From IMG/VR virus record IMGVR_UViG_3300038312_000193: a DNA stretch of 64,000 nucleotides; one strand, written 5' to 3'. Made by a program: the position numbers and the translations under genes. Position 1 is the stretch's first letter. Each line of letters begins with the position of its first letter. Of the stretch, positions 6,177-60,538 are shown piece after piece. This stretch comes from a virus. Below the pieces are notes generated by a model. That model did not search any database, was not told the DNA's origin, and worked only from the letters and a program-made list of their open reading frames with translations.

Positions 6177-8075
6177 TTGACTATAAATTGGTCTAATAAT
6201 CAAATACTTTCAAAAAAACGCAAAGGCACAACCGAAGATCCTTTTTTATTAATAGAAGAATCTTTACCTTGTGTTAATTGTAAAATAGTATTAACAGAAG
6301 TTCCAAATAAACAACAAAAGGTTACTTTAAATTATTCTGAAGAATATTCATCTACTAAAAATTATATAGTAGGTGATTTAGTTTATTATGAGATAGATAA
6401 TATAAAAACTACTTATGAGTGTATAGTTGATTGTATAAATATTCTTCCAACTGATACATCTAAATGGAAAATAATTGATTTTATTGAAGTTTCTAATATT
6501 AAAGTCTTAGAAAAATATGAGTATTATGTTAATTATTTAGATTCTATTATTAGTTTGAATTCATATTTTTCTAATAAAAATATCATTTGTAAATACTATG
6601 GTGAGGGTTTAGATTTTTATCCTTCAACACGAATATGGACAAAAGCAGATGGCACAGAAGTCACAGAAACTTTACAAGATATTATTTCTTCTGGACAAGA
6701 TGCTATAGATGCCGCACTTGTATTAAAAGAATTTGAAGTTATTGAACCTTATGATAATGATAAAACATATAAAGTTTTAAATAAAGTTACTTATGAAGGT
6801 TCTACATATCAATGTATTTTACAATCTCAAGGTAATTTACCAACAAATTCTACTTATTGGATTCTTATTGCACAAAAAGGTGATCAAGGAATTCAGGGTT
6901 TGCAAGGAGATATTGGCTTAAAAGGTGATAAAGGTGATAAAGCAGTAAATTGGAAAAATACATATAATCCATCTACAACATATATTATAGATGATGCTGT
7001 ATCATATAACGGATCATCATATATTTGTATTTTAGCATCTACAGGCAATGCACCAACAAACACCACCTATTGGGATGTATTAGCAGAAAAAGGTGCTGAC
7101 GGTTCGGGTTCAGGTAGTGTAACTAACGTATCATCTGCAAATGAAGATATATCTATTGCCAATCCAACTACTACTCCTACTCTTACTCTTAATTCAGGTG
7201 CAGGAGCAAATCAAATTGTAAAACGTGATTTTAATGGTGATATACCTGGAGATATTACAGGTAATGCAGCAACGGTTACACAAGATTCTACACATAGAAT
7301 GGTAACTGATACAGAAAAATCTACATGGAATGGAAAACAAGATGCTTTAACCTTTACTCCTGAAAACACAGAAAATAAAGGACAAAATAATGGTTATGCT
7401 TCATTAGATTCGACTGGTAAAGTTCCTACTACACAATTACCCGAAGACATTGGGGGTGGTGAAACACCATTCAAGATAAAATCTGCATTTTATACGAGTG
7501 GTACAGATACATTAAGTATAGTTATTGCTAGTGGGACAGGAGAAACTTTTAATAATACAACTATAAATACTATAACAAAAACAACTGATACTACTTTGAA
7601 TATTCCTTCACCATTAGCAAGTACAACCTATACAATTTATCTTAAAAATGATGGTAATTTTGATAAATCAATAGATGGGACTACTTCAACTGGAAGTATA
7701 ACCATTGGGACAGTTAGTACAAATGCGGATAAATCTGTAAATACAATTATTGATAAAAGACCTTTGGTAAGTGGTGTTGGGAAAGAGTTTATTGCGCATA
7801 AGGCCGAAACTGCGACAGATGCCCATATTATTTCAAATATAACTGGGCTCCAAACTGCTTTAAGTGATAAATCACCTACAAATCACAATCATAGTGGGAC
7901 TTATGAGCCTGTGGATGCTGATATTATGCGTAAAGATGTACCACAAACCATGTCTGCTATACTAACTGCGCAAAATAATACTTCTTATACAACTAAACAG
8001 GTTCGTAACATTACTCTTTCTACAGCAGATGCATCAGGTGGTAGTAATGGCGATATATGGTTTAAATATGTATAA
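6177..8075 (+). CDS. Tail fibre/adhesin with three small carbohydrate-binding (CBM5/12-like) repeats and a collagen-like stretch
   Basis: Y..GD.V.Y.GS.Y.C......P.....W repeats; GDQGIQGLQGDIGLKGDKGDK; NGYASLDSTGKVP fibre motif. Confidence 0.8.
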   Translation: MTINWSNNQILSKKRKGTTEDPFLLIEESLPCVNCKIVLTEVPNKQQKVTLNYSEEYSSTKNYIVGDLVYYEIDNIKTTYECIVDCINILPTDTSKWKIIDFIEVSNIKVLEKYEYYVNYLDSIISLNSYFSNKNIICKYYGEGLDFYPSTRIWTKADGTEVTETLQDIISSGQDAIDAALVLKEFEVIEPYDNDKTYKVLNKVTYEGSTYQCILQSQGNLPTNSTYWILIAQKGDQGIQGLQGDIGLKGDKGDKAVNWKNTYNPSTTYIIDDAVSYNGSSYICILASTGNAPTNTTYWDVLAEKGADGSGSGSVTNVSSANEDISIANPTTTPTLTLNSGAGANQIVKRDFNGDIPGDITGNAATVTQDSTHRMVTDTEKSTWNGKQDALTFTPENTENKGQNNGYASLDSTGKVPTTQLPEDIGGGETPFKIKSAFYTSGTDTLSIVIASGTGETFNNTTINTITKTTDTTLNIPSPLASTTYTIYLKNDGNFDKSIDGTTSTGSITIGTVSTNADKSVNTIIDKRPLVSGVGKEFIAHKAETATDAHIISNITGLQTALSDKSPTNHNHSGTYEPVDADIMRKDVPQTMSAILTAQNNTSYTTKQVRNITLSTADASGGSNGDIWFKYV

Positions 8076-9749: not shown

Positions 9750-9774
9750 ATATGCAATATTAGAGGTGATAATT

Positions 9775-10503
9775 ATAGAACAATATTATGGAATTATTTA
9801 CTCAGCAACAAACATTATTAATAATAAAAAATATATCGGACAAACAAAATATACATTACATAAAAGAAAATTAGAGCATTTATCATCTTATAAAAGAAAG
9901 CAGAAAACTGTTTTTCAGAAAGCACTTAAAAAATATGGTGAAGAAAATTTTATTTGGGAAATTATTGATTATGCAAAAACTCCAGAAGAAATAGATTTAA
10001 AAGAACGATATTGGATTAATTATTATAATACTTTTAAATAAGATGGTTATAATATGAATCCAGGTGGGCAAGCATTTAAATTTACAGATGATGAATGGTT
10101 ACATATTTCTCTTCTTCATGATCATAGAAAAGTGATGGTGTTTAATAAAAAAGGTAATTACATAGAAACTGTGGCATCTAAGAAAATATTTTCTATTCAA
10201 TATGATTGTAGATTACAGGATACTATAATTGTATTAAATGATATAAAGAGTTCAGTAAAAGATTATATATTAATATATGAAGATGAATATTCAGAAGAAC
10301 TATTGATAAGTAAAATAAAAAGAACTAGAAATAATCGTGAATTTACTGTGAAAGATACAGAAGATAACCTAATTGGCACATGGGATAATCAAACTTATTG
10401 TGCGAATGAATTAAATATACATCGTGGTAATGTGAGTAAATGTTTATCGGGTAAATTGTCTAAATGCAATGGTTACATATTTCAATATGTAGATAATTTA
10501 TAA
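9775..10503 (+). pseudogene. GIY-YIG/NUMOD1 homing endonuclease interrupted by in-frame TAA (10039-10041)
   Basis: GIIY..YIGQT motif; reads YYNTFK*DGYNMNPGG in one frame; C-terminal NUMOD1-like CANELNI..GNVSKCL..K...GYIF. Confidence 0.85.
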
Positions 10504-10522
10504 TATTAAAAATATAATATAA

Positions 10523-10588
10523 ATATATTACATTATCTCCTTTTATATGATAAAATAAAATAAAAATATAAAAGGAGATATAATATAT
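10523..10588 (+). promoter_or_regulatory. Hairpin covering RBS and start of the tyrosine recombinase
   Basis: TATCTCCTTTTATAT (10534-48) is the exact reverse complement of ATATAAAAGGAGATA (10566-80). Confidence 0.65.
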
Positions 10589-11567
10589 GGAATCTTTATT
10601 GAATGAATTACTACAAAAAGTTTTAGAAGTAAATTCTATAAGTTCTAATATTAATTTAATAGAACTTAAAACACATTTTTCTTCTATATTGTATAAGTAT
10701 AATATAAATTATAAAACTGATAATATAGAAGATATTGATTTATCAAATTACATAAATATGTTTTTATCAATTAAAAAATTGGAAGGATTAAGTGATATTA
10801 CTTTAGATACTTATAAACTAGAACTTAATATATTTAACAAAAATATAAACAAATCATTACCTGCAATTACAAGTAATGATATTAGATTGTATTTATCTAA
10901 ATTTCCAAAATTGAAACAAAGTTCTATTGGAAAGAAAATATATGTTCTTAAATCATTCTTTAAAATTATGGTTAGAGAAGAGGTAATAATAAAAAATCCT
11001 ATGAACAAAATTAACGCTCCCAAAAAAGAAAAAAGATTACCAAAAGCATTATCTGAAGAACAAGTAGAAACACTTAGAGAGAATTGTACAACGTTACGTG
11101 AAAAAGCCATATTCGAGCTTTTTATTGCAACGGGTTGCCGTTTAAATGAGTTGTCTCAATTAAATATTAATGATATAAATTGGAAATATCAATCAATAAA
11201 AGTAATAGGAAAAGGTAATTCTGAAAGAATAGTTTATTTTAATTTTAAAGCAACTCATTATTTAAAAAAATACCTAAATAATAGGAATGATAATTGTGAA
11301 GCTTTATTTGTCACTGAAAGAAAAGAATATAGAAGATTATCCAATAGAGGGATACAAAGAATTTTTAATAATCTTGGAGATAAGGCAAATATAAAATTGC
11401 ACGTTCACAAGTGCCGCCACACATTTGCTTCTAATTTATTAAATTCAGGTGCAGACTTAGCATTAGTTCAAGCAATGTTAGGACATAGTTCTCCTGATAC
11501 CACTCAGGTATATTGTCAATTATCTGAGCAAAGTAAATATGATGGATATAGGCGATATGCTTCATAG
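10587..11567 (+). CDS. XerC/D-like tyrosine recombinase, catalytic residues intact
   Basis: SAM-like N-terminal domain; TGCRLNE (R), GKG (K), HKCRH (HxxR), LGH, TTQVY (Y). Confidence 0.95.
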   Translation: MESLLNELLQKVLEVNSISSNINLIELKTHFSSILYKYNINYKTDNIEDIDLSNYINMFLSIKKLEGLSDITLDTYKLELNIFNKNINKSLPAITSNDIRLYLSKFPKLKQSSIGKKIYVLKSFFKIMVREEVIIKNPMNKINAPKKEKRLPKALSEEQVETLRENCTTLREKAIFELFIATGCRLNELSQLNINDINWKYQSIKVIGKGNSERIVYFNFKATHYLKKYLNNRNDNCEALFVTERKEYRRLSNRGIQRIFNNLGDKANIKLHVHKCRHTFASNLLNSGADLALVQAMLGHSSPDTTQVYCQLSEQSKYDGYRRYAS

Positions 11568-11613
11568 CATTAAAATATTAATATAAATATATAGATTAAT
11601 TTTGATTTATAAT

Positions 11614-11677
11614 ATCGTGATAAAACTTTAATTTGGTGTTGATTTTACCCCTTAGAAACGCCGAAATCTAGGCGTTT
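11614..11677. repeat. 12-6-12 palindromic site plus companion 7-8-7 palindrome next to the recombinase
   Basis: ATCGTGATAAAA-CTTTAA-TTTGGTGTTGAT, 12 bp, AAACGCC-GAAATCTA-GGCGTTT. Confidence 0.75.
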
Positions 11678-11740
11678 ATATTTTTGCAAAAATATACAAT
11701 AATTTGGAAATTTATAAAATTAGAAAGAAAGGGATGATAA

Positions 11741-15779: not shown

Positions 15780-17504
15780 TTATGCTATCATTATAGCATA
15801 TTTATTGAATTTTAATAGCCATGAGATAACGTCATCACAAGATGGTGTTATCTCATGGCAATAATTAAAAGGTTTTTCCCATTCAATTTCTAACCATAAT
15901 TTTTCAGGATTTTCTTTATCTCTATTAACAATAATTTTATTTATAAGAAGTGACACATCTATATTAGTTAATTCTCCTGTTTCAATTATATTTTCTAAAA
16001 TTTCTATGGTTTTTAATATCCCTTTTTTTGATTTATTATTAATTTCTTGAAGATTATCTATTTCATTTAATTGTTCTTCAAGTCTTAATTGAGTGGTTTT
16101 TGTGTCTTTAACTAAATCTTTAAAAATATCTTCATCAATTAAACCTTTAGCAAGTTGTTGAGAATAACTTTTAAGTTCATCTTTACATTCCGCTAATTGG
16201 ATATTAATTTTATTTTTTAAAGAATCATAATTATGTTTTTTATCAAGGTTTTCTTTAATTTTTTCATCAACCATTTTTAAAGTTTCTTTAGCAGTTTCTT
16301 TTAATTTATCAACTTGATCTAATATAGTTTTGTCAATATCTGTTTCCAAAATTTGATGTGTTTCACATTCGTTTTTACCATATCTAAAATAGGTTGAACA
16401 AATATAACATATAGGATTATCAGGATTATGACCAATATTCCTTTTAATAAATCCTTTTCCACAATTCCCACATTTCAAAATACCTGCATATTTATAAATC
16501 TTTCCATTCCCTGCTCTCACACTATTACTATTCCTTTTATTTAAAATAGTTTGTGCTAAATTAAAAGTATCTTTATCTATAATTGGTGGGAAAAAATTTT
16601 CATGAATACAATATTCAGATGGATCAGTATTTCTTCTTCCACCTTTTATCATAGTTCTTTGTGTAGTTCCGCATACTAATGTGCCTATATAACATTTGTT
16701 GGTGATTATTCTTTTTATCCCAATTTCACTCCATAAATGTTCATATTGAACATCAGTTTTAGCATTAATTCTATTAAATTTTTGTTTCTTATATAAAGAT
16801 GGAGTAATAACATTTTTTTCATTTAAATGATTTGCTATCTTTCTAAAACCATATCCATTGATATATAAATCAAATATTAGTTTAATTATCCATTCTACTT
16901 CTTCATCAATTATCCACTTATATTTGTCGTTTTCATTAGGATTTTTTATATATCCGAAAGATGGCACAATTACTAAACCGTCCTTTCTTTGTTTGGTTTT
17001 TATAGCACTTCTAATTTTTTTGCTTATATCCTTTATATAAAGTTCATTATACCATGTCTTAATTCCTATAATAGATTCATTTTGATCGTTTTTAGTATCT
17101 ACTGAATCATTGATTGCTATTAATCTTTTTTCATGAGATATAATCCATTCCAAAAATAATAAAGTTAAAGCATTATGTCTTCCAATTCTTGATAAGTCTT
17201 TTGCTATAATACCATATGCTTCGCTGTTTTCTAGTTTATCTTTAATAAGATTAAATCCAGGTCTATCAAACTTATAACCAGTAAAATTATCATCGATAAA
17301 TATACCTTTTAATTCTACTTGATTTATAACTGCCCAATCTTGAATTAAATCAATTTGAGTATTAATAGAATCTTTTTTAACATTGTCTTCATCTCTTGAA
17401 AGTCTAACATAACCATAAAAGACGCCAAGATATTTATTATTGGGTGTAGAAGGTTTAATATTACATTCAATATAATTTGAATTGATTTGCTCTTTTGTTG
17501 CCAT
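15780..17504 (-). CDS. Large serine recombinase (phage integrase)
   Basis: YVRLS catalytic motif, DRPGF, DLSRIGR, recombinase domain, Zn ribbon CGNC..YIC..C, coiled coil; AGAGGAG RBS favours ATG 17504. Confidence 0.95.
   Translation of the reverse strand: MATKEQINSNYIECNIKPSTPNNKYLGVFYGYVRLSRDEDNVKKDSINTQIDLIQDWAVINQVELKGIFIDDNFTGYKFDRPGFNLIKDKLENSEAYGIIAKDLSRIGRHNALTLLFLEWIISHEKRLIAINDSVDTKNDQNESIIGIKTWYNELYIKDISKKIRSAIKTKQRKDGLVIVPSFGYIKNPNENDKYKWIIDEEVEWIIKLIFDLYINGYGFRKIANHLNEKNVITPSLYKKQKFNRINAKTDVQYEHLWSEIGIKRIITNKCYIGTLVCGTTQRTMIKGGRRNTDPSEYCIHENFFPPIIDKDTFNLAQTILNKRNSNSVRAGNGKIYKYAGILKCGNCGKGFIKRNIGHNPDNPICYICSTYFRYGKNECETHQILETDIDKTILDQVDKLKETAKETLKMVDEKIKENLDKKHNYDSLKNKINIQLAECKDELKSYSQQLAKGLIDEDIFKDLVKDTKTTQLRLEEQLNEIDNLQEINNKSKKGILKTIEILENIIETGELTNIDVSLLINKIIVNRDKENPEKLWLEIEWEKPFNYCHEITPSCDDVISWLLKFNKYAIMIA
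15818..15859. repeat. 42-bp inverted repeat, candidate attP inside the integrase 3' end
   Basis: GCCATGAGATAAC-GTCATCACAAGATGGT-GTTATCTCATGGC. Confidence 0.6.
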
Positions 17505-17528
17505 ACATTCAACTCCTCTAATAGATAA

Positions 17529-17561
17529 ATGAGATAACACATAATTTATGTTATCTCATGG
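17529..17561. repeat. Second copy of the integrase inverted repeat upstream of its RBS
   Basis: ATGAGATAAC-ACATAATTTAT-GTTATCTCAT. Confidence 0.65.
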
Positions 17562-18206: not shown

Positions 18207-18238
18207 AATATATCTTTCCTTTCTATATATTTATATTA

Positions 18239-18802
18239 CTATTTTAATAACCCTCCCCTTATCTCACTCCATGTTTCATAATATTCCCCTGTCCACTCTC
18301 TGTTCCAATCAAATTTCTTACCGTACAGTATCTTTCGTTCAGCATTTGAACTATCAAGATTACTTTTTACATCATCGATAAAAACCGATCCTTTATACCC
18401 CATCTGGACAATGCCCTTATCCATTTTAATTCCTTGATTAGTTAGTAAAATAGCATCTTTAATATAAGGCATATTATTTTTTATCCATTGTGATTTTAAA
18501 GATATATTATTAAAACATCCAATAGAACATATAATAATTTGATATTTATTAGTTAATTCTTTAATTACTTCTTCTGCATTTGGCATAAATTTAAGATTTT
18601 TAAAAAATAATGGATGACTAAATATGTATAAAGGACTTTCTACAAGAGGACATTGAGTCTTAAAATCCCATTCTTGATTTTTAGTATGGTCAGCAGGTAT
18701 AAAATCTGGAGTAAATCTATTAATTTCATTGTAGGTTTCGCAATATGCTAAAACTGAATCAGTAATAACACTATCAAAATCCAAAAATAGTTTTGATTTC
18801 AT
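18239..18802 (-). CDS. HAD-family 5'(3')-deoxyribonucleotidase
   Basis: LFLDFDSVI motif I, FIDD motif. Confidence 0.8.
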   Translation of the reverse strand: MKSKLFLDFDSVITDSVLAYCETYNEINRFTPDFIPADHTKNQEWDFKTQCPLVESPLYIFSHPLFFKNLKFMPNAEEVIKELTNKYQIIICSIGCFNNISLKSQWIKNNMPYIKDAILLTNQGIKMDKGIVQMGYKGSVFIDDVKSNLDSSNAERKILYGKKFDWNREWTGEYYETWSEIRGGLLK

Positions 18803-20073: not shown

Positions 20074-21331
20074 TTACTTAAAAAATATATATTCAAAACT
20101 TGGCATATAATTATATTGCAAATCTTTATTGATATAAACTAATACTAAATCTTTAATAATACTATTGCGTTCATATTTATTTTCACAATTTTCATTTACT
20201 ACTTTAAAATGACAATCCATATTACATATGTAACCACGCATAAATTCGGGTATATCTTCAGCACATTGTAAAATTACTTTATCTTCGTTTTCTTTGAATT
20301 TTTGGACAGTTGTAATATTAAATAAATATTTATTGTTTTGCGATATTTTAATTATTGGTACTCCTTTAATAAAATTCATATATTTAAATCTCCTTTCCCT
20401 TTTATCATTTCTTTATACATTTCAAACGCTTTTCTATAATTCTTATCTAATTCTTTTAATACCTTAATAAAATCATCACTTAATTCTTGAATATAATTAC
20501 AATCTAAACATTTTAATATAACCTTATCATTTTCTTCTACTGGCACTAAATTTTGATGATTTGAATTATTACCACAAGTTAAAGGATGAACAAATTGATT
20601 ATCTTGATATGAAGTTAGTATTTTAATTTTTTGTTTATTAGTCATTTTGTTTATTCCTCATATTATCTTTAACTCTACTAATAAACATTTGTTTTAATTT
20701 CCCAATTTCACCTTCTTTAAAATTTAATTCTCTACACATAGTTTGACAGGCCTTAAGTAGTGCAGTATCTAAAATGAAATTTTCTAATTGTAGTCTTTGA
20801 TTTTCAAGTTGAAGTTGAATTATGTAGTTTTCACTTCTCATATTAATTCTCACTTTCTTTTGCTATTATAAATGATCCATTGTAGCACATCCAATACATA
20901 TTTAAACTCCCGTCTTCTCCTTTAATAAAATAATCTTCTTCACCAAAACCATCTTCATGTTTTATTAATTCATATACTTTATTAGGTTCAATATAATCCT
21001 TTACGGGACTTTTATTATCCGTGTGGGCAAGCCAATGGGTAGCCTCGTCAATATTATTTGTGATTGTATAATCCAATAACTATGTACCTCCTATGTTTAT
21101 TTATTATGTATTTTCTATATATTTATTTTACTATTTTAATTAGAAGTTTTCAAGAATAATTTTCCATTTATCTTTGTTTTGTTGAAATGTTTGATGATCC
21201 TGACAGTTTTGGATTTCTTCTATATTTTTATAAGTGATTTCAATACCTTTTAAAGTACAAGTAGATTTTTTAAGGTTATTTGGTTTTTCTAATTCACAAT
21301 AATGGATACATACGGGTAAAGTACATTTCAA
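20074..21331 (-). other. Five small hypothetical CDS (20074-20379, 20376-20645, 20638-20853, 20843-21076, 21140-21331)
   Basis: Co-oriented, mostly overlapping ORFs with RBSs; no recognisable motifs. Confidence 0.6.
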
Positions 21332-23517: not shown

Positions 23518-23581
23518 ATCAACACCAAACAAACCTTCTGTCATGATTTCATGTTTCACAAACGCCTATTTCTAGGCATTC
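23518..23581. repeat. 12-6-12 site plus companion upstream of tnpB
   Basis: ATCAACACCAAA-CAAACC-TTCTGTCATGAT, 12 bp, AAACGCC-TATTTCTA-GGCATTC. Confidence 0.75.
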
Positions 23582-29708: not shown

Positions 29709-29832
29709 TATTGAACCCCCTCCACTCTCTAAATATCATCATAAAATTCCAATTTGGTATTGTTTTTAGGGTTTAAGAATCCCATAATATTGGGATTCTT
29801 AAAATTGTAATTTTAGAATATTTAAACGTAAA

Positions 29833-49974: not shown

Positions 49975-50739
49975 TTATACTATTAATCTGTTTTTTGCAA
50001 TTTCACAATATTTTTCTTCCAATTCGATGCCAATACATTTTCTTTTTAAATTCCTTGATGCTAATAATGTTGTACCAGAACCGCAAGTGAAATCTAAAAT
50101 AAGTTCGTTTTCTTTTGTGTATGTATTAATTAAATATTCTATAAGAGGCACTGGTTTTTGTGTTGGATGTAAACCACTTTCAGAATTAAATTCTAAAATA
50201 TTATTCGGATAATTTGTATATTTTTGAGTATAATCATTTTGTCTGCTTGGACGTTCTTCAATTGTAGTCCCTTTTCTTGATTTGCCTTTATTGCTTTTTT
50301 GTTTATTAATTTCTATTAACCCTTGAGGATAATATTTCATCATGTTTTTACTGCCATTTGCTATGTTTCCAAAACTAAAACACATTACATCTTCATATTT
50401 TTTCATTGGACTATTTTTAGCATTTAGAAAATTACCTACTTTTGATTTAATCCATTTATAATCATATTTATAAAGTTTTTCATTGCTCAATCTTAAATGA
50501 CTACTAAATGGTTCTGTGCCAAATAAACAAATACATCCATCGTCTACTATTAAATTTTCAAGTCTATCCCATATTTCTTTATAATTAATTACACTATCCC
50601 ATTTACATGCTGTAGTCCCATAAGGTGGATCAGTGATTATTGCATCAAATTTTATACCCTTCTCAATAATCTTATCCATCACTTCTAAACAATCACCTTG
50701 AAATAGTCTTATGTATTCATCTTTATAGTATAATTGCAT
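49975..50739 (-). CDS. N6A/N4C DNA methyltransferase (beta class)
   Basis: GDCL, DPPYG, HPTQKP, DFTCGSGTT. Confidence 0.93.
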   Translation of the reverse strand: MQLYYKDEYIRLFQGDCLEVMDKIIEKGIKFDAIITDPPYGTTACKWDSVINYKEIWDRLENLIVDDGCICLFGTEPFSSHLRLSNEKLYKYDYKWIKSKVGNFLNAKNSPMKKYEDVMCFSFGNIANGSKNMMKYYPQGLIEINKQKSNKGKSRKGTTIEERPSRQNDYTQKYTNYPNNILEFNSESGLHPTQKPVPLIEYLINTYTKENELILDFTCGSGTTLLASRNLKRKCIGIELEEKYCEIAKNRLIV

Positions 50740-50767
50740 CTATAATTAATTCAACCCTCCTTTTATA

Positions 50768-51346
50768 TTATATTTTTACATCACTTTCAACTTCATTACC
50801 CCATACGTCCCAACCTACTCTTTTATTTCTAGCAAACAATTCAATGTAAGGTGCATAACTAACTTTCTCTATCATTTCATACATCTCTTTTGGTTTTTCA
50901 GAATGTTCCCCTCTAGGAGCAACAAATACCGTTTTACCTTGTTGCCTTTTACTATTTAAAGTCTTATATGGCAAAACACCTTTTACACCAAACAAACATA
51001 CTTCATCAAGTCCACGGAAATATTGTCCTAATCCTGCATTTTCAAATTTAAAAGTTTTACCTTCTGAATCAAGACATTCTCCTTTTACCCATGTGATTTT
51101 TGTTTTATATGTAAATCCCCATGCTTTCATAACTTGTAAACCATCTTTAAGAAAATTATTTGTAACCCATAAGTATAAGTGACAATTATCATCTGCTAAA
51201 TTATGTATTGGTAAATTTATAATATCCTTTGTTTTCATTAATGGATAATGTCTATCTGCTCCACGTTTAATCTTTCCTCCACCTGATTCCATCCAAGGAG
51301 GATCGGCATATATTGTTTTATATTTATTAATCTTTTTTACCTCCAT
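50768..51346 (-). CDS. MT-A70 family adenine methyltransferase
   Basis: ADPPW, LYLWVT, HSEKP, IELFAR...GWDVWGNE. Confidence 0.92.
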   Translation of the reverse strand: MEVKKINKYKTIYADPPWMESGGGKIKRGADRHYPLMKTKDIINLPIHNLADDNCHLYLWVTNNFLKDGLQVMKAWGFTYKTKITWVKGECLDSEGKTFKFENAGLGQYFRGLDEVCLFGVKGVLPYKTLNSKRQQGKTVFVAPRGEHSEKPKEMYEMIEKVSYAPYIELFARNKRVGWDVWGNEVESDVKI

Positions 51347-51438
51347 TTTTATATTATTGTTTTATTATGACTTGTGACAAAACCGAAGTTTTGTGTTGAT
51401 TTTTGGATTTATAAAGCCCAATATTACGGGATTCTTGT

Positions 51439-52182
51439 TTAAGCAATTTTGTGATTTTTGACTCTTTCTAAAGATAAATTATAATATTCTTCATCTGTTT
51501 CAAATCCTATGTAATTTCTTTTGGTATTTAAACAAGCTATCGCTGTTGTACCAGAACCCATACAATTATCTAAAACTAATTCATTTTCATTTGTGTATGT
51601 ATTAATTAAGTATTCAAATAATTCCACTGGTTTTTGAGTAGGATGAACTTTTTCTTTCTGATTTGCGTTACCGATTTCAATAATGCTTGTTGGATAGTAT
51701 TCATCATATATTTCTTTTTCTTTAGGTTGATTTATAGTGCCATAACAATCACTTAAAGAATAAAGTTTTCCACCTTTACTTCTCTGTTTTCCTTTTCTCA
51801 TAATTGGATTATATGTAGGCATTTTTTTATAAAAACATAATATTAATTCATGTCTTCTTAAAGGTTGTCTTTTGGCATTTAAAAAACCTGTTGATAATTT
51901 TTTATCCCATATTAAATCATATTTAAATAATTTATTATTACTATTAATTAATTTAGTTGCAAATGGTTGTGTAGCAGTAAAACACATCATCCCATTATCT
52001 TTTATAATTCTTTCATACTGCTCCCATAATGGTTCAAATGGAATTATCTCATCCCATTTATTTCTTGCCGTAACCCCATACGGCAAATCACATAAGATCA
52101 TATCAATACTTTTATCTGGTATTAAACACATACCATTTTCTTTAATACAATCTTCATTATAAATAGTATTCAATTCAATCAA
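51439..52182 (-). CDS. N6A/N4C DNA methyltransferase (beta class)
   Basis: CDLPYG, HPTQKP, DNCMGSGTT. Confidence 0.92.
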   Translation of the reverse strand: MIELNTIYNEDCIKENGMCLIPDKSIDMILCDLPYGVTARNKWDEIIPFEPLWEQYERIIKDNGMMCFTATQPFATKLINSNNKLFKYDLIWDKKLSTGFLNAKRQPLRRHELILCFYKKMPTYNPIMRKGKQRSKGGKLYSLSDCYGTINQPKEKEIYDEYYPTSIIEIGNANQKEKVHPTQKPVELFEYLINTYTNENELVLDNCMGSGTTAIACLNTKRNYIGFETDEEYYNLSLERVKNHKIA

Positions 52183-58500: not shown

Positions 58501-60538
58501 TCCAAAAATGCAAATTATATTGAAAGAAATTCCCATTGCAATTATAATGATTTCTCATAGTATCAAAAAAGATATCTAATTCTTCTTCATTCCAATCTAT
58601 AGGCAATCTAAAATTATTAATATCTTTTGGTCTTTTTATATTAAGAATATTAAACATTTCAATAATTTCATTTTTGTGTGAATAATATTCTGTTAATACC
58701 CTTAACCATAATGGAGTTTCTTCTGTTGACCAAGATTCTTCATAATCTTTTTCATAAACAACCGCAAGGAATTTAGTGAAATTATCTTTATTAATATTGT
58801 TTGAGATTAAATCAATGAATAGAGAATTTTTACACTTTTCATTCGATAATTTAACTTCCTCTTTTAATTGCCTTGCTTCATTTCGTAATTTTTGATTTTC
58901 TTCTCTTAGTTGAATATTGTTGTTTTTAATATCATCAATTTCGCTTTGAACTGATGCTAAAAGGATAGTTTTACATTTCTCTCTATACTCTATAAACAAT
59001 TCATCTAAAGGCGTTGGCTCATAAATCTGCTCATCATAATATTCATTATATCCATACATTTTTTACTTCCTCCTATATTTATTTTTATAACATTATAAAA
59101 GCTGGATTTGGTATTAATCTTGCTCACCACAAAATCCTTTAACCAACCACTTAAAAGTAGCATACAATTCTTCTAATGATTCAAATTCACTATTAATATT
59201 TAATCCCCTGGTAAACACATCATATATATCTACTTGCTTATTAAGACTATATCCCTGGTTAATCATCCACCCTGTTAAATTATCAAATAAGTGTTTAATA
59301 TATGTCTTCTCTCCATCATGCCCATTTGTAAATTCATACACTGTTTCAATACTTATGGAATACATTTTACTTTCTTTATTATAAGTAATATCAATGTCAT
59401 TCATTGTATATAGATTTGCTTCACTATAAGACGGATCGTTTGCTGATTTGATTCCCCAAATAAATTTATATGTATCTTCGTATTTTTCATATTCTTTAGA
59501 ATATTGATGTTTATTCCATAGTGATTTTAATTTACGAAACATATTATTCTCCTTTATTATTATATTATACATTTAATGTAAAATCAAACATTTATAACGA
59601 TTTTATATACTAATTAGTGTAAGATTTACTTCCATATCATTTTGATAAATATCAATATTTCTTTGTAAAGATTCTTGTAACTGTTTTATTTCATTTTTTA
59701 TTCTTATATCTTTTTCTTTGAATGTTTTATCACCAATCTTTATATTTCCTAATTTTCTTAGTAGTTGAATAATTCATACTTCCTCCTTCTTAATTTGTAG
59801 CATCTGTATTTTTTGGTTTCCTACTTTTCTTTTTCTCTTTACTACTCTCATATACCGATTTCAATAATTGCCCTACATATGTATTAGTACCCTCATAAAA
59901 TATAATCACTTCGGCCTTTTCTTGTTTGTTTAAAGTTTCAAATTCTACAATAAGATGTTGTATTGCTTGCTCTACATTGTTACATATAAGTAGAATGTCA
60001 TCAGAATTCAAACCGATTATATTTGATTTACGTTTCAATATGTATACTCCTTTCTATATATTTATATTATAATTTTAATACAATGTTTGAATAAAATCAA
60101 TAGTTGGTCATATTATTTATTGCAGTTTTAATATTCCTGTTTGCATTTCTTCTAACATAATTATGTATTTATATTTTTCATCTATAATTTCACTTATATT
60201 GCATTCTTTATCTGAATCTTTATGAAAACTAATACCATCTAAATTGCAGGTTTTATAACTTTCTCGATAATCATGACTAATACAATATCCGCATTTGCTT
60301 TTAACACATTTCATTATCAACCCTCCTTTATTTTTACATATTGATTCTTTTATATTAATATTATTGACTCTTCTTTAGATATTGTTAATTTTCCATCTTT
60401 ATCAATATGAATATAACAATCTTCTTTAGGTTCAAGATATATATCACCATTTGCATAATGAATAATAGTAATATTTTCAGCTTCAATAGTTAATTTATTT
60501 TCATCTATTGTAAACATCGAATTATTAATCACAATCAA
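55600..60538 (-). other. Array of about 14 small hypothetical CDS, mostly one per pair of sites (includes 58013-59059, 348 aa)
   Basis: ORF track; most have an RBS and end at or in a palindromic site. Confidence 0.7.

Follow-up and report, generated by a model that had tools for sequence, protein, structure and literature searches.

Single-Xer systems such as XerA/dif (5hxy, 4a8e), XerH/difH and XerS/difSL pair an enzyme that has the two-domain Xer fold and a full catalytic set with a short dyad, centred on 6 bp, near its gene. Similar features are seen in a 64,000-nucleotide stretch of viral DNA (IMG/VR record IMGVR_UViG_3300038312_000193; the whole stretch is called the window below), where a tyrosine recombinase gene of a large, Clostridium-type phage is placed after the tail genes and before the lysis genes; XerA is the best match to its product. 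The window enzyme differs from the single-Xer systems in being phage-encoded at a tail/lysis junction, in carrying about 55 extra N-terminal residues and in sharing its genome with about ten or more look-alike sites. The role proposed here resembles that of Cre, a tyrosine recombinase of phage P1: working without a partner enzyme on the nearby dyad loxP, Cre circularises or resolves the genome. However, Cre is only a distant structural match, loxP has a 13-8-13 layout, and P1 carries a single loxP instead of a set of sites that differ in their centres.

Of the published systems, Tyrovirus gp50 (Bacillus phages Tsamsa and Thrax) offers the nearest parallel. It is a late-gene tyrosine recombinase of large Firmicute phages in which other recombinases are also present; it is encoded in the structural module, and an 11-6-11 palindrome follows immediately after its stop codon (PMC9703825). 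In contrast to the window gene, gp50 lies between neck and tape-measure genes, which is the slot of SPbeta YomM, and a leader hairpin has not been reported for it. In the pdif (dif) modules of Acinetobacter plasmids, many Xer-type sites likewise bracket small modules that differ between related replicons, but those sites are read by the host XerC/XerD pair, whereas here the candidate reader is a single, phage-borne Xer-like enzyme and each site has its own centre. For the leader of the window gene, the nearest precedent is the fold-back inhibition of IS10 and IS50 transposase mRNA reportedly described by Davis, Simons and Kleckner in 1985. The logic that the window leader would share is that a segment upstream of the element's own start pairs with the ribosome-binding site (RBS) and silences only outside transcripts; in the window, by contrast, the leader would guard a phage site-specific recombinase, its anti-Shine-Dalgarno arm lies in the promoter spacer, and the start site is a predicted one.

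The recombinase is the obvious candidate reader of the palindromic gene-exchange sites in this phage, and its status sets how those sites should be tested. With moderate confidence, we interpret it as an accessory, self-regulated, single Xer/Cre-type recombinase that would act in resolution or circularisation at a short dyad, with the adjoining site as the best candidate target. Two results stand on their own: the fixed tail-fibre/lysis slot of the recombinase clade, and a leader that should silence read-through transcripts. The features of the locus are as follows.

10528–10556, plus strand: predicted own promoter (−35 TTACAT at 10528–10533, 17-nt spacer, TG at 10548–10549, −10 TAAAAT at 10551–10556)
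10534–10548, plus strand: left arm of the inverted repeat (anti-Shine-Dalgarno), inside the promoter spacer
10566–10580, plus strand: right arm of the inverted repeat, containing the RBS AAAAGGAGA, 9 nt before the ATG
10587–11567, plus strand: XerA/XerC/XerD-like tyrosine recombinase gene, 326-aa product, catalytic residues intact
11614–11643, no strand assigned: 12-6-12 junction site (core), ATCGTGATAAAA-CTTTAA-TTTGGTGTTGAT, 27.8 bits
11656–11686, plus strand: companion GC hairpin AAACGCC-N8-GGCGTTT (11656–11677) with a T-run, called as an intrinsic terminator

An intact Xer-like recombinase in a fixed slot

The recombinase gene ends in a TAG codon (11565–11567), and Pfam assigns its product a Phage_integrase domain (PF00589, E 3.5e-40) and an N-terminal SAM-like domain. 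The initial annotation had noted an intact R-K-HxxR-H-Y set, which is borne out: the residues are R185, K209, H274, R277, H300 and Y309, and all are invariant, H300 nearly so, in ten relatives at 74–98% identity and in an alignment of 28 sequences that extends down to 48% identity. It is near certain that the gene is intact and encodes an Xer-like tyrosine recombinase. Among the curated Xer models, the protein passes the XerA-type model NF040815 by a margin of about 6 bits (225.7 against a cut-off of 220) and falls below the models for XerC (211.5 against 335) and XerD (199.4 against 330). The closest solved sequences and folds are archaeal XerA and XerD, followed by progressively weaker structure or sequence matches to IntI4, Tn1549 Int, XerH, lambda Int, Cre and the SPbeta-type repressor SroF; the IntI4 sequence match is confined to the C-terminal 58 or so residues. 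In a structure model with a mean predicted local distance difference test score (pLDDT) of 84.8, the extra N-terminal segment of about 55 residues, which is conserved, is predicted as two short helices. A family profile search found no second member in the window, where the recombinase is the only Xer-like protein.

Three other assignments were rejected. A lambda-type integrase does not fit a product for which Pfam gives SAM-like and catalytic domains only, and repeated arm sites were not seen in the flanks. Orthology with SPbeta YomM would rest on a BLASTP match of E 0.002 over 73 residues, and the slot differs, here being that between tail fibre and lysis. An intI/attI-like arrangement had been proposed from the DNA alone. 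Integrons do share with the locus a tyrosine recombinase beside a recombination-type site and many gene-junction sites in the genome, but the protein scores far below both integron-integrase models (TIGR02249, 93.8 bits against 265; NF011946, 46.6 against 435). The sites are fixed 30-bp dyads rather than long folded attC elements, and the adjoining one lies 3′ and co-oriented, outside the shared cassette and absent in three of six close sequences, with no divergent Pc/attI layout or divergent cassette array. By its sequence, the protein is an Xer-like enzyme with a predicted extra N-terminal helix pair and not an integron integrase.

Relatives of the enzyme are scattered. A single-protein scan of viral contigs retrieved no recombinase relative, and profile scans of viral and genome contigs gave relatives at no more than 47% identity. 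A metagenome scan returned seven short contigs with recombinase relatives; six metagenome relatives have upstream sequence (L026, L027 and L029–L032; 74–83% protein identity). Relatives at 97% and 83% identity lie on contigs of 139 kb and 135.6 kb, respectively, and a tail-protein scan gave relatives at 41–44% identity only. The order tail fibre or XkdX, then recombinase, then XhlA, holin or lysin is conserved in four unrelated backgrounds.

Terrisporobacter phage TPELB_ph1, 36 kb: 40% identity; also encodes a serine integrase
C. perfringens phage phiCp-D, 55 kb: 37% identity; ParM
IMG/VR contig L001: 47% identity; partition protein
C. botulinum phage-plasmid, circular, 49.9 kb: 42% identity; ParM

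The initial annotation had cautioned that XerD-like genes are common beside the tail-fibre genes of Firmicute phages, and the same kind of gene is indeed found beside such genes in unrelated Firmicute phages. As judged from gene order, the Xer-like clade holds a fixed tail-fibre/lysis slot in very different Firmicute phages and phage-plasmids, and the recombinase is a sporadic, portable cassette, not a core gene.

A leader hairpin that covers the ribosome-binding site

A 15-bp perfect inverted repeat over the RBS had been noticed from the letters alone and is confirmed here. Its arms (10534–10548 and 10566–10580) are 15 nt long, 100% complementary and separated by a 17-nt loop. Just two loci of the window hold a perfect inverted repeat of at least 15 nt with a loop of at most 40 nt; of 30 block shuffles, 28 contained none. 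Throughout the close clade (the window and the six relatives with upstream sequence), the left arm occupies the spacer between the hexamers of the predicted promoter. A promoter scan lists the window hexamers as ATTACA-18-TAAAAT with TG, and the same promoter register is present in L026, L027, L029, L030, L031 and L032, with TTGACA or TTGTTT, 17 nt, and TGnTATAAT or TACAAT. On the evidence of these hexamers, the recombinase transcript would start near 10563, inside the hairpin loop. This predicted start lies beyond the left arm, so RNA from the gene's own promoter should not contain it.

An RBS-covering hairpin is predicted for all seven close sequences as well as for the homologues from phiCp-D and TPELB_ph1, and the z-scores of the nine leader folds range from −2.5 to −8.1. 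The RBS itself varies (GGAG, GGGGG, GGGAGG, GGGG and GGG), and each version pairs with a matching upstream segment. Leaders were folded one by one; MAFFT followed by RNAalifold gave no structure, because loop lengths differ, and Rfam holds no family for the leader or for the downstream module. The computed probability that the RBS is unpaired is 0.22–0.86 for own-promoter RNA versus 0.00–0.15 for read-through RNA. Read-through is expected at this locus, since a terminator scan found none between the upstream GIY-YIG endonuclease gene and the recombinase gene.

We consider it likely that the leader gates translation of the recombinase. RNA derived from upstream would carry both repeat arms, fold and hide the RBS, whereas RNA from the extended −10 promoter would begin within the loop, lack the left arm and be translatable. 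In these folding models, the hairpin should block only transcripts that start upstream of about 10549, acting as a gate and not as a general brake, and the recombinase is probably translated only from its own promoter. Its output would then be low, set by that promoter, and off during heavy transcription of the flanking late region. The earlier suggestion of tightly limited translation thus survives as a predicted RNA-structure gate but not as a general limit, since own-promoter mRNA should stay open.

The adjoining dyad and its candidate reader

The stretch of homology between the window and its relatives is sharply delimited. Its left edge falls at 10473–10507 (except in L030, where homology extends into the endonuclease gene) and its right edge at 11587–11596; at each edge lies a copy of an AT-rich box.

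10505–10528, plus strand: upstream copy of the AT-rich box, ATTAAAAATATAATATAAATATAT, a recurrent promoter-like motif of the window
11569–11592, plus strand: second exact copy, at the right edge of the shared cassette
18225–18248, 21117–21140 and 60056–60079, minus strand: other copies, with about 20 weaker ones besides

With up to five substitutions allowed, the box ATTAAAAtAnTAATATAAATATAT has about 27 copies, against 4–14 in shuffles, and strong copies lie 2–25 nt ahead of ribosome-binding sites. The upstream box lies in a direct repeat of 51 nt (71%) whose partner is at 11561–11611, and the box after the stop, TATTAATATAAATAT, is kept in four of six relatives. The box is probably a phage promoter class that doubles as a mosaic boundary. 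From these alignments, the recombinase locus appears as a portable cassette consisting of promoter, leader, gene and terminator. If the box at 11569 were a promoter, it would yield an RNA of about 90 nt, a possible small RNA comprising the core and the companion hairpin and ending at the T-run (11569–11686).

Beyond the right edge the relatives diverge, with a subtilase-type protein in L026, a papain/SPOR protein in L028 and a direct passage to the XhlA-like gene in L029. The first two are wall-targeted proteases (L026 1247–2308, subtilase plus Cu_amine_oxidN1 domain; L028 1020–2057, papain-type plus SPOR domain) and look like alternative lysis accessories exchanged in one slot. In L032 the gene itself is broken (688–2207): the part matching window positions 10993–11485 is replaced by a terminator and a 475-aa open reading frame (ORF) with weak homing-endonuclease-associated repeats.

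The core site starts 47 bp beyond the recombinase stop and is followed by its hairpin, so the high-quality core and companion reported there by the initial annotation hold up. Sites were scored with a half-site matrix built from the window's own sites, the 11614 site included; ten in the window reach at least 12 bits, against 0.1–0.2 expected in shuffles, and the 11614 site is among the top four. Arms are conserved between these sites and the 6-bp centres vary. Such a 12-6-12 design, its arms conserved and its 6-bp centre free to vary, corresponds to the sites that Xer/Cre-type enzymes bind. Even in the window, generic dyad counting does not pick the motif out of the AT-rich background.

The cores at 23518, 29735 and 51371 are likewise trailed by companion hairpins of this class; a scan for the companion hairpin gave chance matches only. 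The companions always sit about 12 nt to one constant side of the core and are conserved in sequence as well as structure, as AGAATCCC-loop-GGGATTCT or AAACGCC-loop-GGCGTTT.

Window 23560–23581, 29777–29798 and 51413–51433: further companion hairpins
L027 1552–1580 and L032 about 2340–2366: companion hairpins in relatives

By its sequence features, the hairpin at 11656 would serve the recombinase gene as an intrinsic terminator. In the early region, where the minus strand is the coding one, the companions lack a T-run on that strand and so are not ordinary terminators there. The core–hairpin module marks a boundary between conserved and variable DNA.

A site adjoins the gene in three of six close sequences: the window (27.8 bits), L027 (11.3 bits, same spacer CTTTAA) and L032 (31 bits, another spacer). 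No alternative target was found near the recombinase gene. By analogy to XerA/dif, XerH/difH and Cre/loxP, the enzyme would most likely act alone on a short dyad with a 6-bp centre, its probable role being to resolve or circularise phage or plasmid-prophage genomes. A link between the recombinase and the junction sites is plausible, though unproven, from the sequences compared.

Several findings weigh against our interpretation of the locus or against the enzyme as reader of the junction sites. The 11614 site lies outside the cassette common to all relatives, and no site adjoins the gene in L026, L028 or L029 (1–3 kb around the gene). The L032 recombinase is without its catalytic half, yet the best-scoring site and the hairpin persist 3′ of it. 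Beside the gene, the four distant homologues examined have terminators but no dyad, and the 11–15 kb analysed from each contained no site with these arms. G007 and G008, two relatives chosen by their polymerase (62–63% polymerase identity), carry dozens of TGAAA-N6-TTTCA palindromes (at about 24–78 kb in G007 and 86–123 kb in G008); their only recombinases are 25–29% identical to the window enzyme, with no site beside either. The AT-rich promoter-like box at 10505–10528 could also fire and yield occluded RNA, so either promoter may be the one in use. Finally, no partition gene was identified in the window and a serine integrase is present, so the need for multimer resolution is an assumption.

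15780–17540, minus strand: large serine integrase (phrog_95 integrase, E 5.7e-91)

From its sequence match, this protein is likely to be the lysogeny integrase. The initial annotation had seen no obvious need of the tyrosine recombinase for lysogeny, and the serine integrase in the window indeed makes it unnecessary for ordinary integration.

An alternative that we regard as unlikely, though the strongest of those considered, is that recombinase and junction sites are unrelated. The recombinase would then be a mobile, moron-like gene whose target lies elsewhere (a dif-like or att site of host or phage), and the 12-6-12 module would be a mosaic boundary or a regulatory element of another factor. 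The cassette edges do fall on AT-rich boxes and not on the site, the distribution is patchy, and selfish genes are abundant around the recombinase (GIY-YIG, HNH and TnpB, to which the endonuclease-like ORF of L032 may be added). A precedent exists in SPbeta, where the repeated intergenic element SPBRE is read by a tyrosine-recombinase-fold repressor, not by a recombinase (PMC10516654); this repressor, MrpR/SroF, is catalytically dead and recognises a long, asymmetric box in monomeric form (bioRxiv 10.1101/2025.11.27.690993). Tyrosine-recombinase folds can therefore be regulators, but the dyad form of the window sites differs from that long, asymmetric, monomer-bound box. Moreover, from about 90 gene junctions in the window, we estimate per junction a chance of about 0.1 that a given gene adjoins a site of at least 12 bits and of about 0.05 for a full site, yet the arrangement recurs in three relatives; and, as stated, the vicinity of the gene offered no other target.

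It seems doubtful, and rather improbable on balance, that the enzyme instead reads all the same-arm 12-6-12 sites and swaps cassettes between related genomes at matching centres, the adjoining full site being the primary one. Because each site has its own 6-bp centre, exchange would then occur only between matching positions of related phage genomes; if this were true, the phage would encode, in a gated XerA-like site reader, a natural equivalent of cassette exchange between heterospecific lox sites, and the leader hairpin would shut the reader off during heavy transcription and replication of the genome. The conserved arms and varying spacers of the ten window sites would suit such an enzyme, as would the position of the module at a conserved/variable edge and the lack of another Xer-like protein in the window. 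In L027 the same spacer follows the gene, albeit in a site of only 11.3 bits, and the DNA beyond differs. Gating, too, would make sense for an enzyme that endangers a genome with many sites for it.

The distribution of the arms bears on cassette exchange from both sides. This arm type was found in one lineage only: the window, L027, L032 and the IMG/VR fragments G031 and G032, which have same-arm sites but do not reach the tail/lysis slot. The polymerase-chosen relatives G001, G002, G004, G007 and G008 (62–77% identity) are without the arm type and without the gene, as cassette exchange would predict, but the joint presence or absence of gene and arms follows phylogeny and is not independent evidence. 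Against cassette exchange, the clade occupies the same slot in small phages and phage-plasmids with no such arm type in the stretches fetched, and the site is missing in three of six close relatives while a strong one persists beside the dead L032 gene. The palindrome-rich G007 and G008 count against it as well, since their variant palindromes show that junction palindromes exist in this phage group without this recombinase clade. The initial annotation had named motif-rich relatives lacking the gene as an outcome that would speak against the enzyme, and what was found goes half that way: relatives with variant junction palindromes do without the clade. G008 encodes an SPbeta YomM orthologue (50677–51714) and a second recombinase (78519–79529), and a YomM-type gene lying outside the window remains an alternative site reader.

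A tail-fibre invertase, flipping a segment of the adjoining tail-fibre genes and so changing host range, is very improbable: the gene directly follows tail-fibre genes in five independent phage backgrounds, a position like that of the serine enzymes Mu Gin and P1 Cin, and low constitutive expression would fit, but no convincing inverted repeats flank any tail-gene segment, and the sole candidate pair (6330–6368 and 10266–10304) is 72% complementary, of low complexity and without an alternative fibre gene on the opposite strand.

Gene neighbourhood

The window has a G+C content of 27%. Tail genes are followed by a GIY-YIG endonuclease in two ORFs, the plus-strand recombinase gene, a small ORF, an XhlA-like gene, an HNH endonuclease, an endolysin and a holin. 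Downstream, on the opposite strand, come the large serine integrase and then a long block, also on the minus strand, that holds replication genes, among them DNA polymerase III alpha, together with small accessory genes.

9766–10503, plus strand: GIY-YIG homing endonuclease in two ORFs, the catalytic one at 9766–10041 and a NUMOD-like DNA-binding one at 10054–10503

The split between the two endonuclease ORFs may reflect a broken gene or a two-part enzyme.

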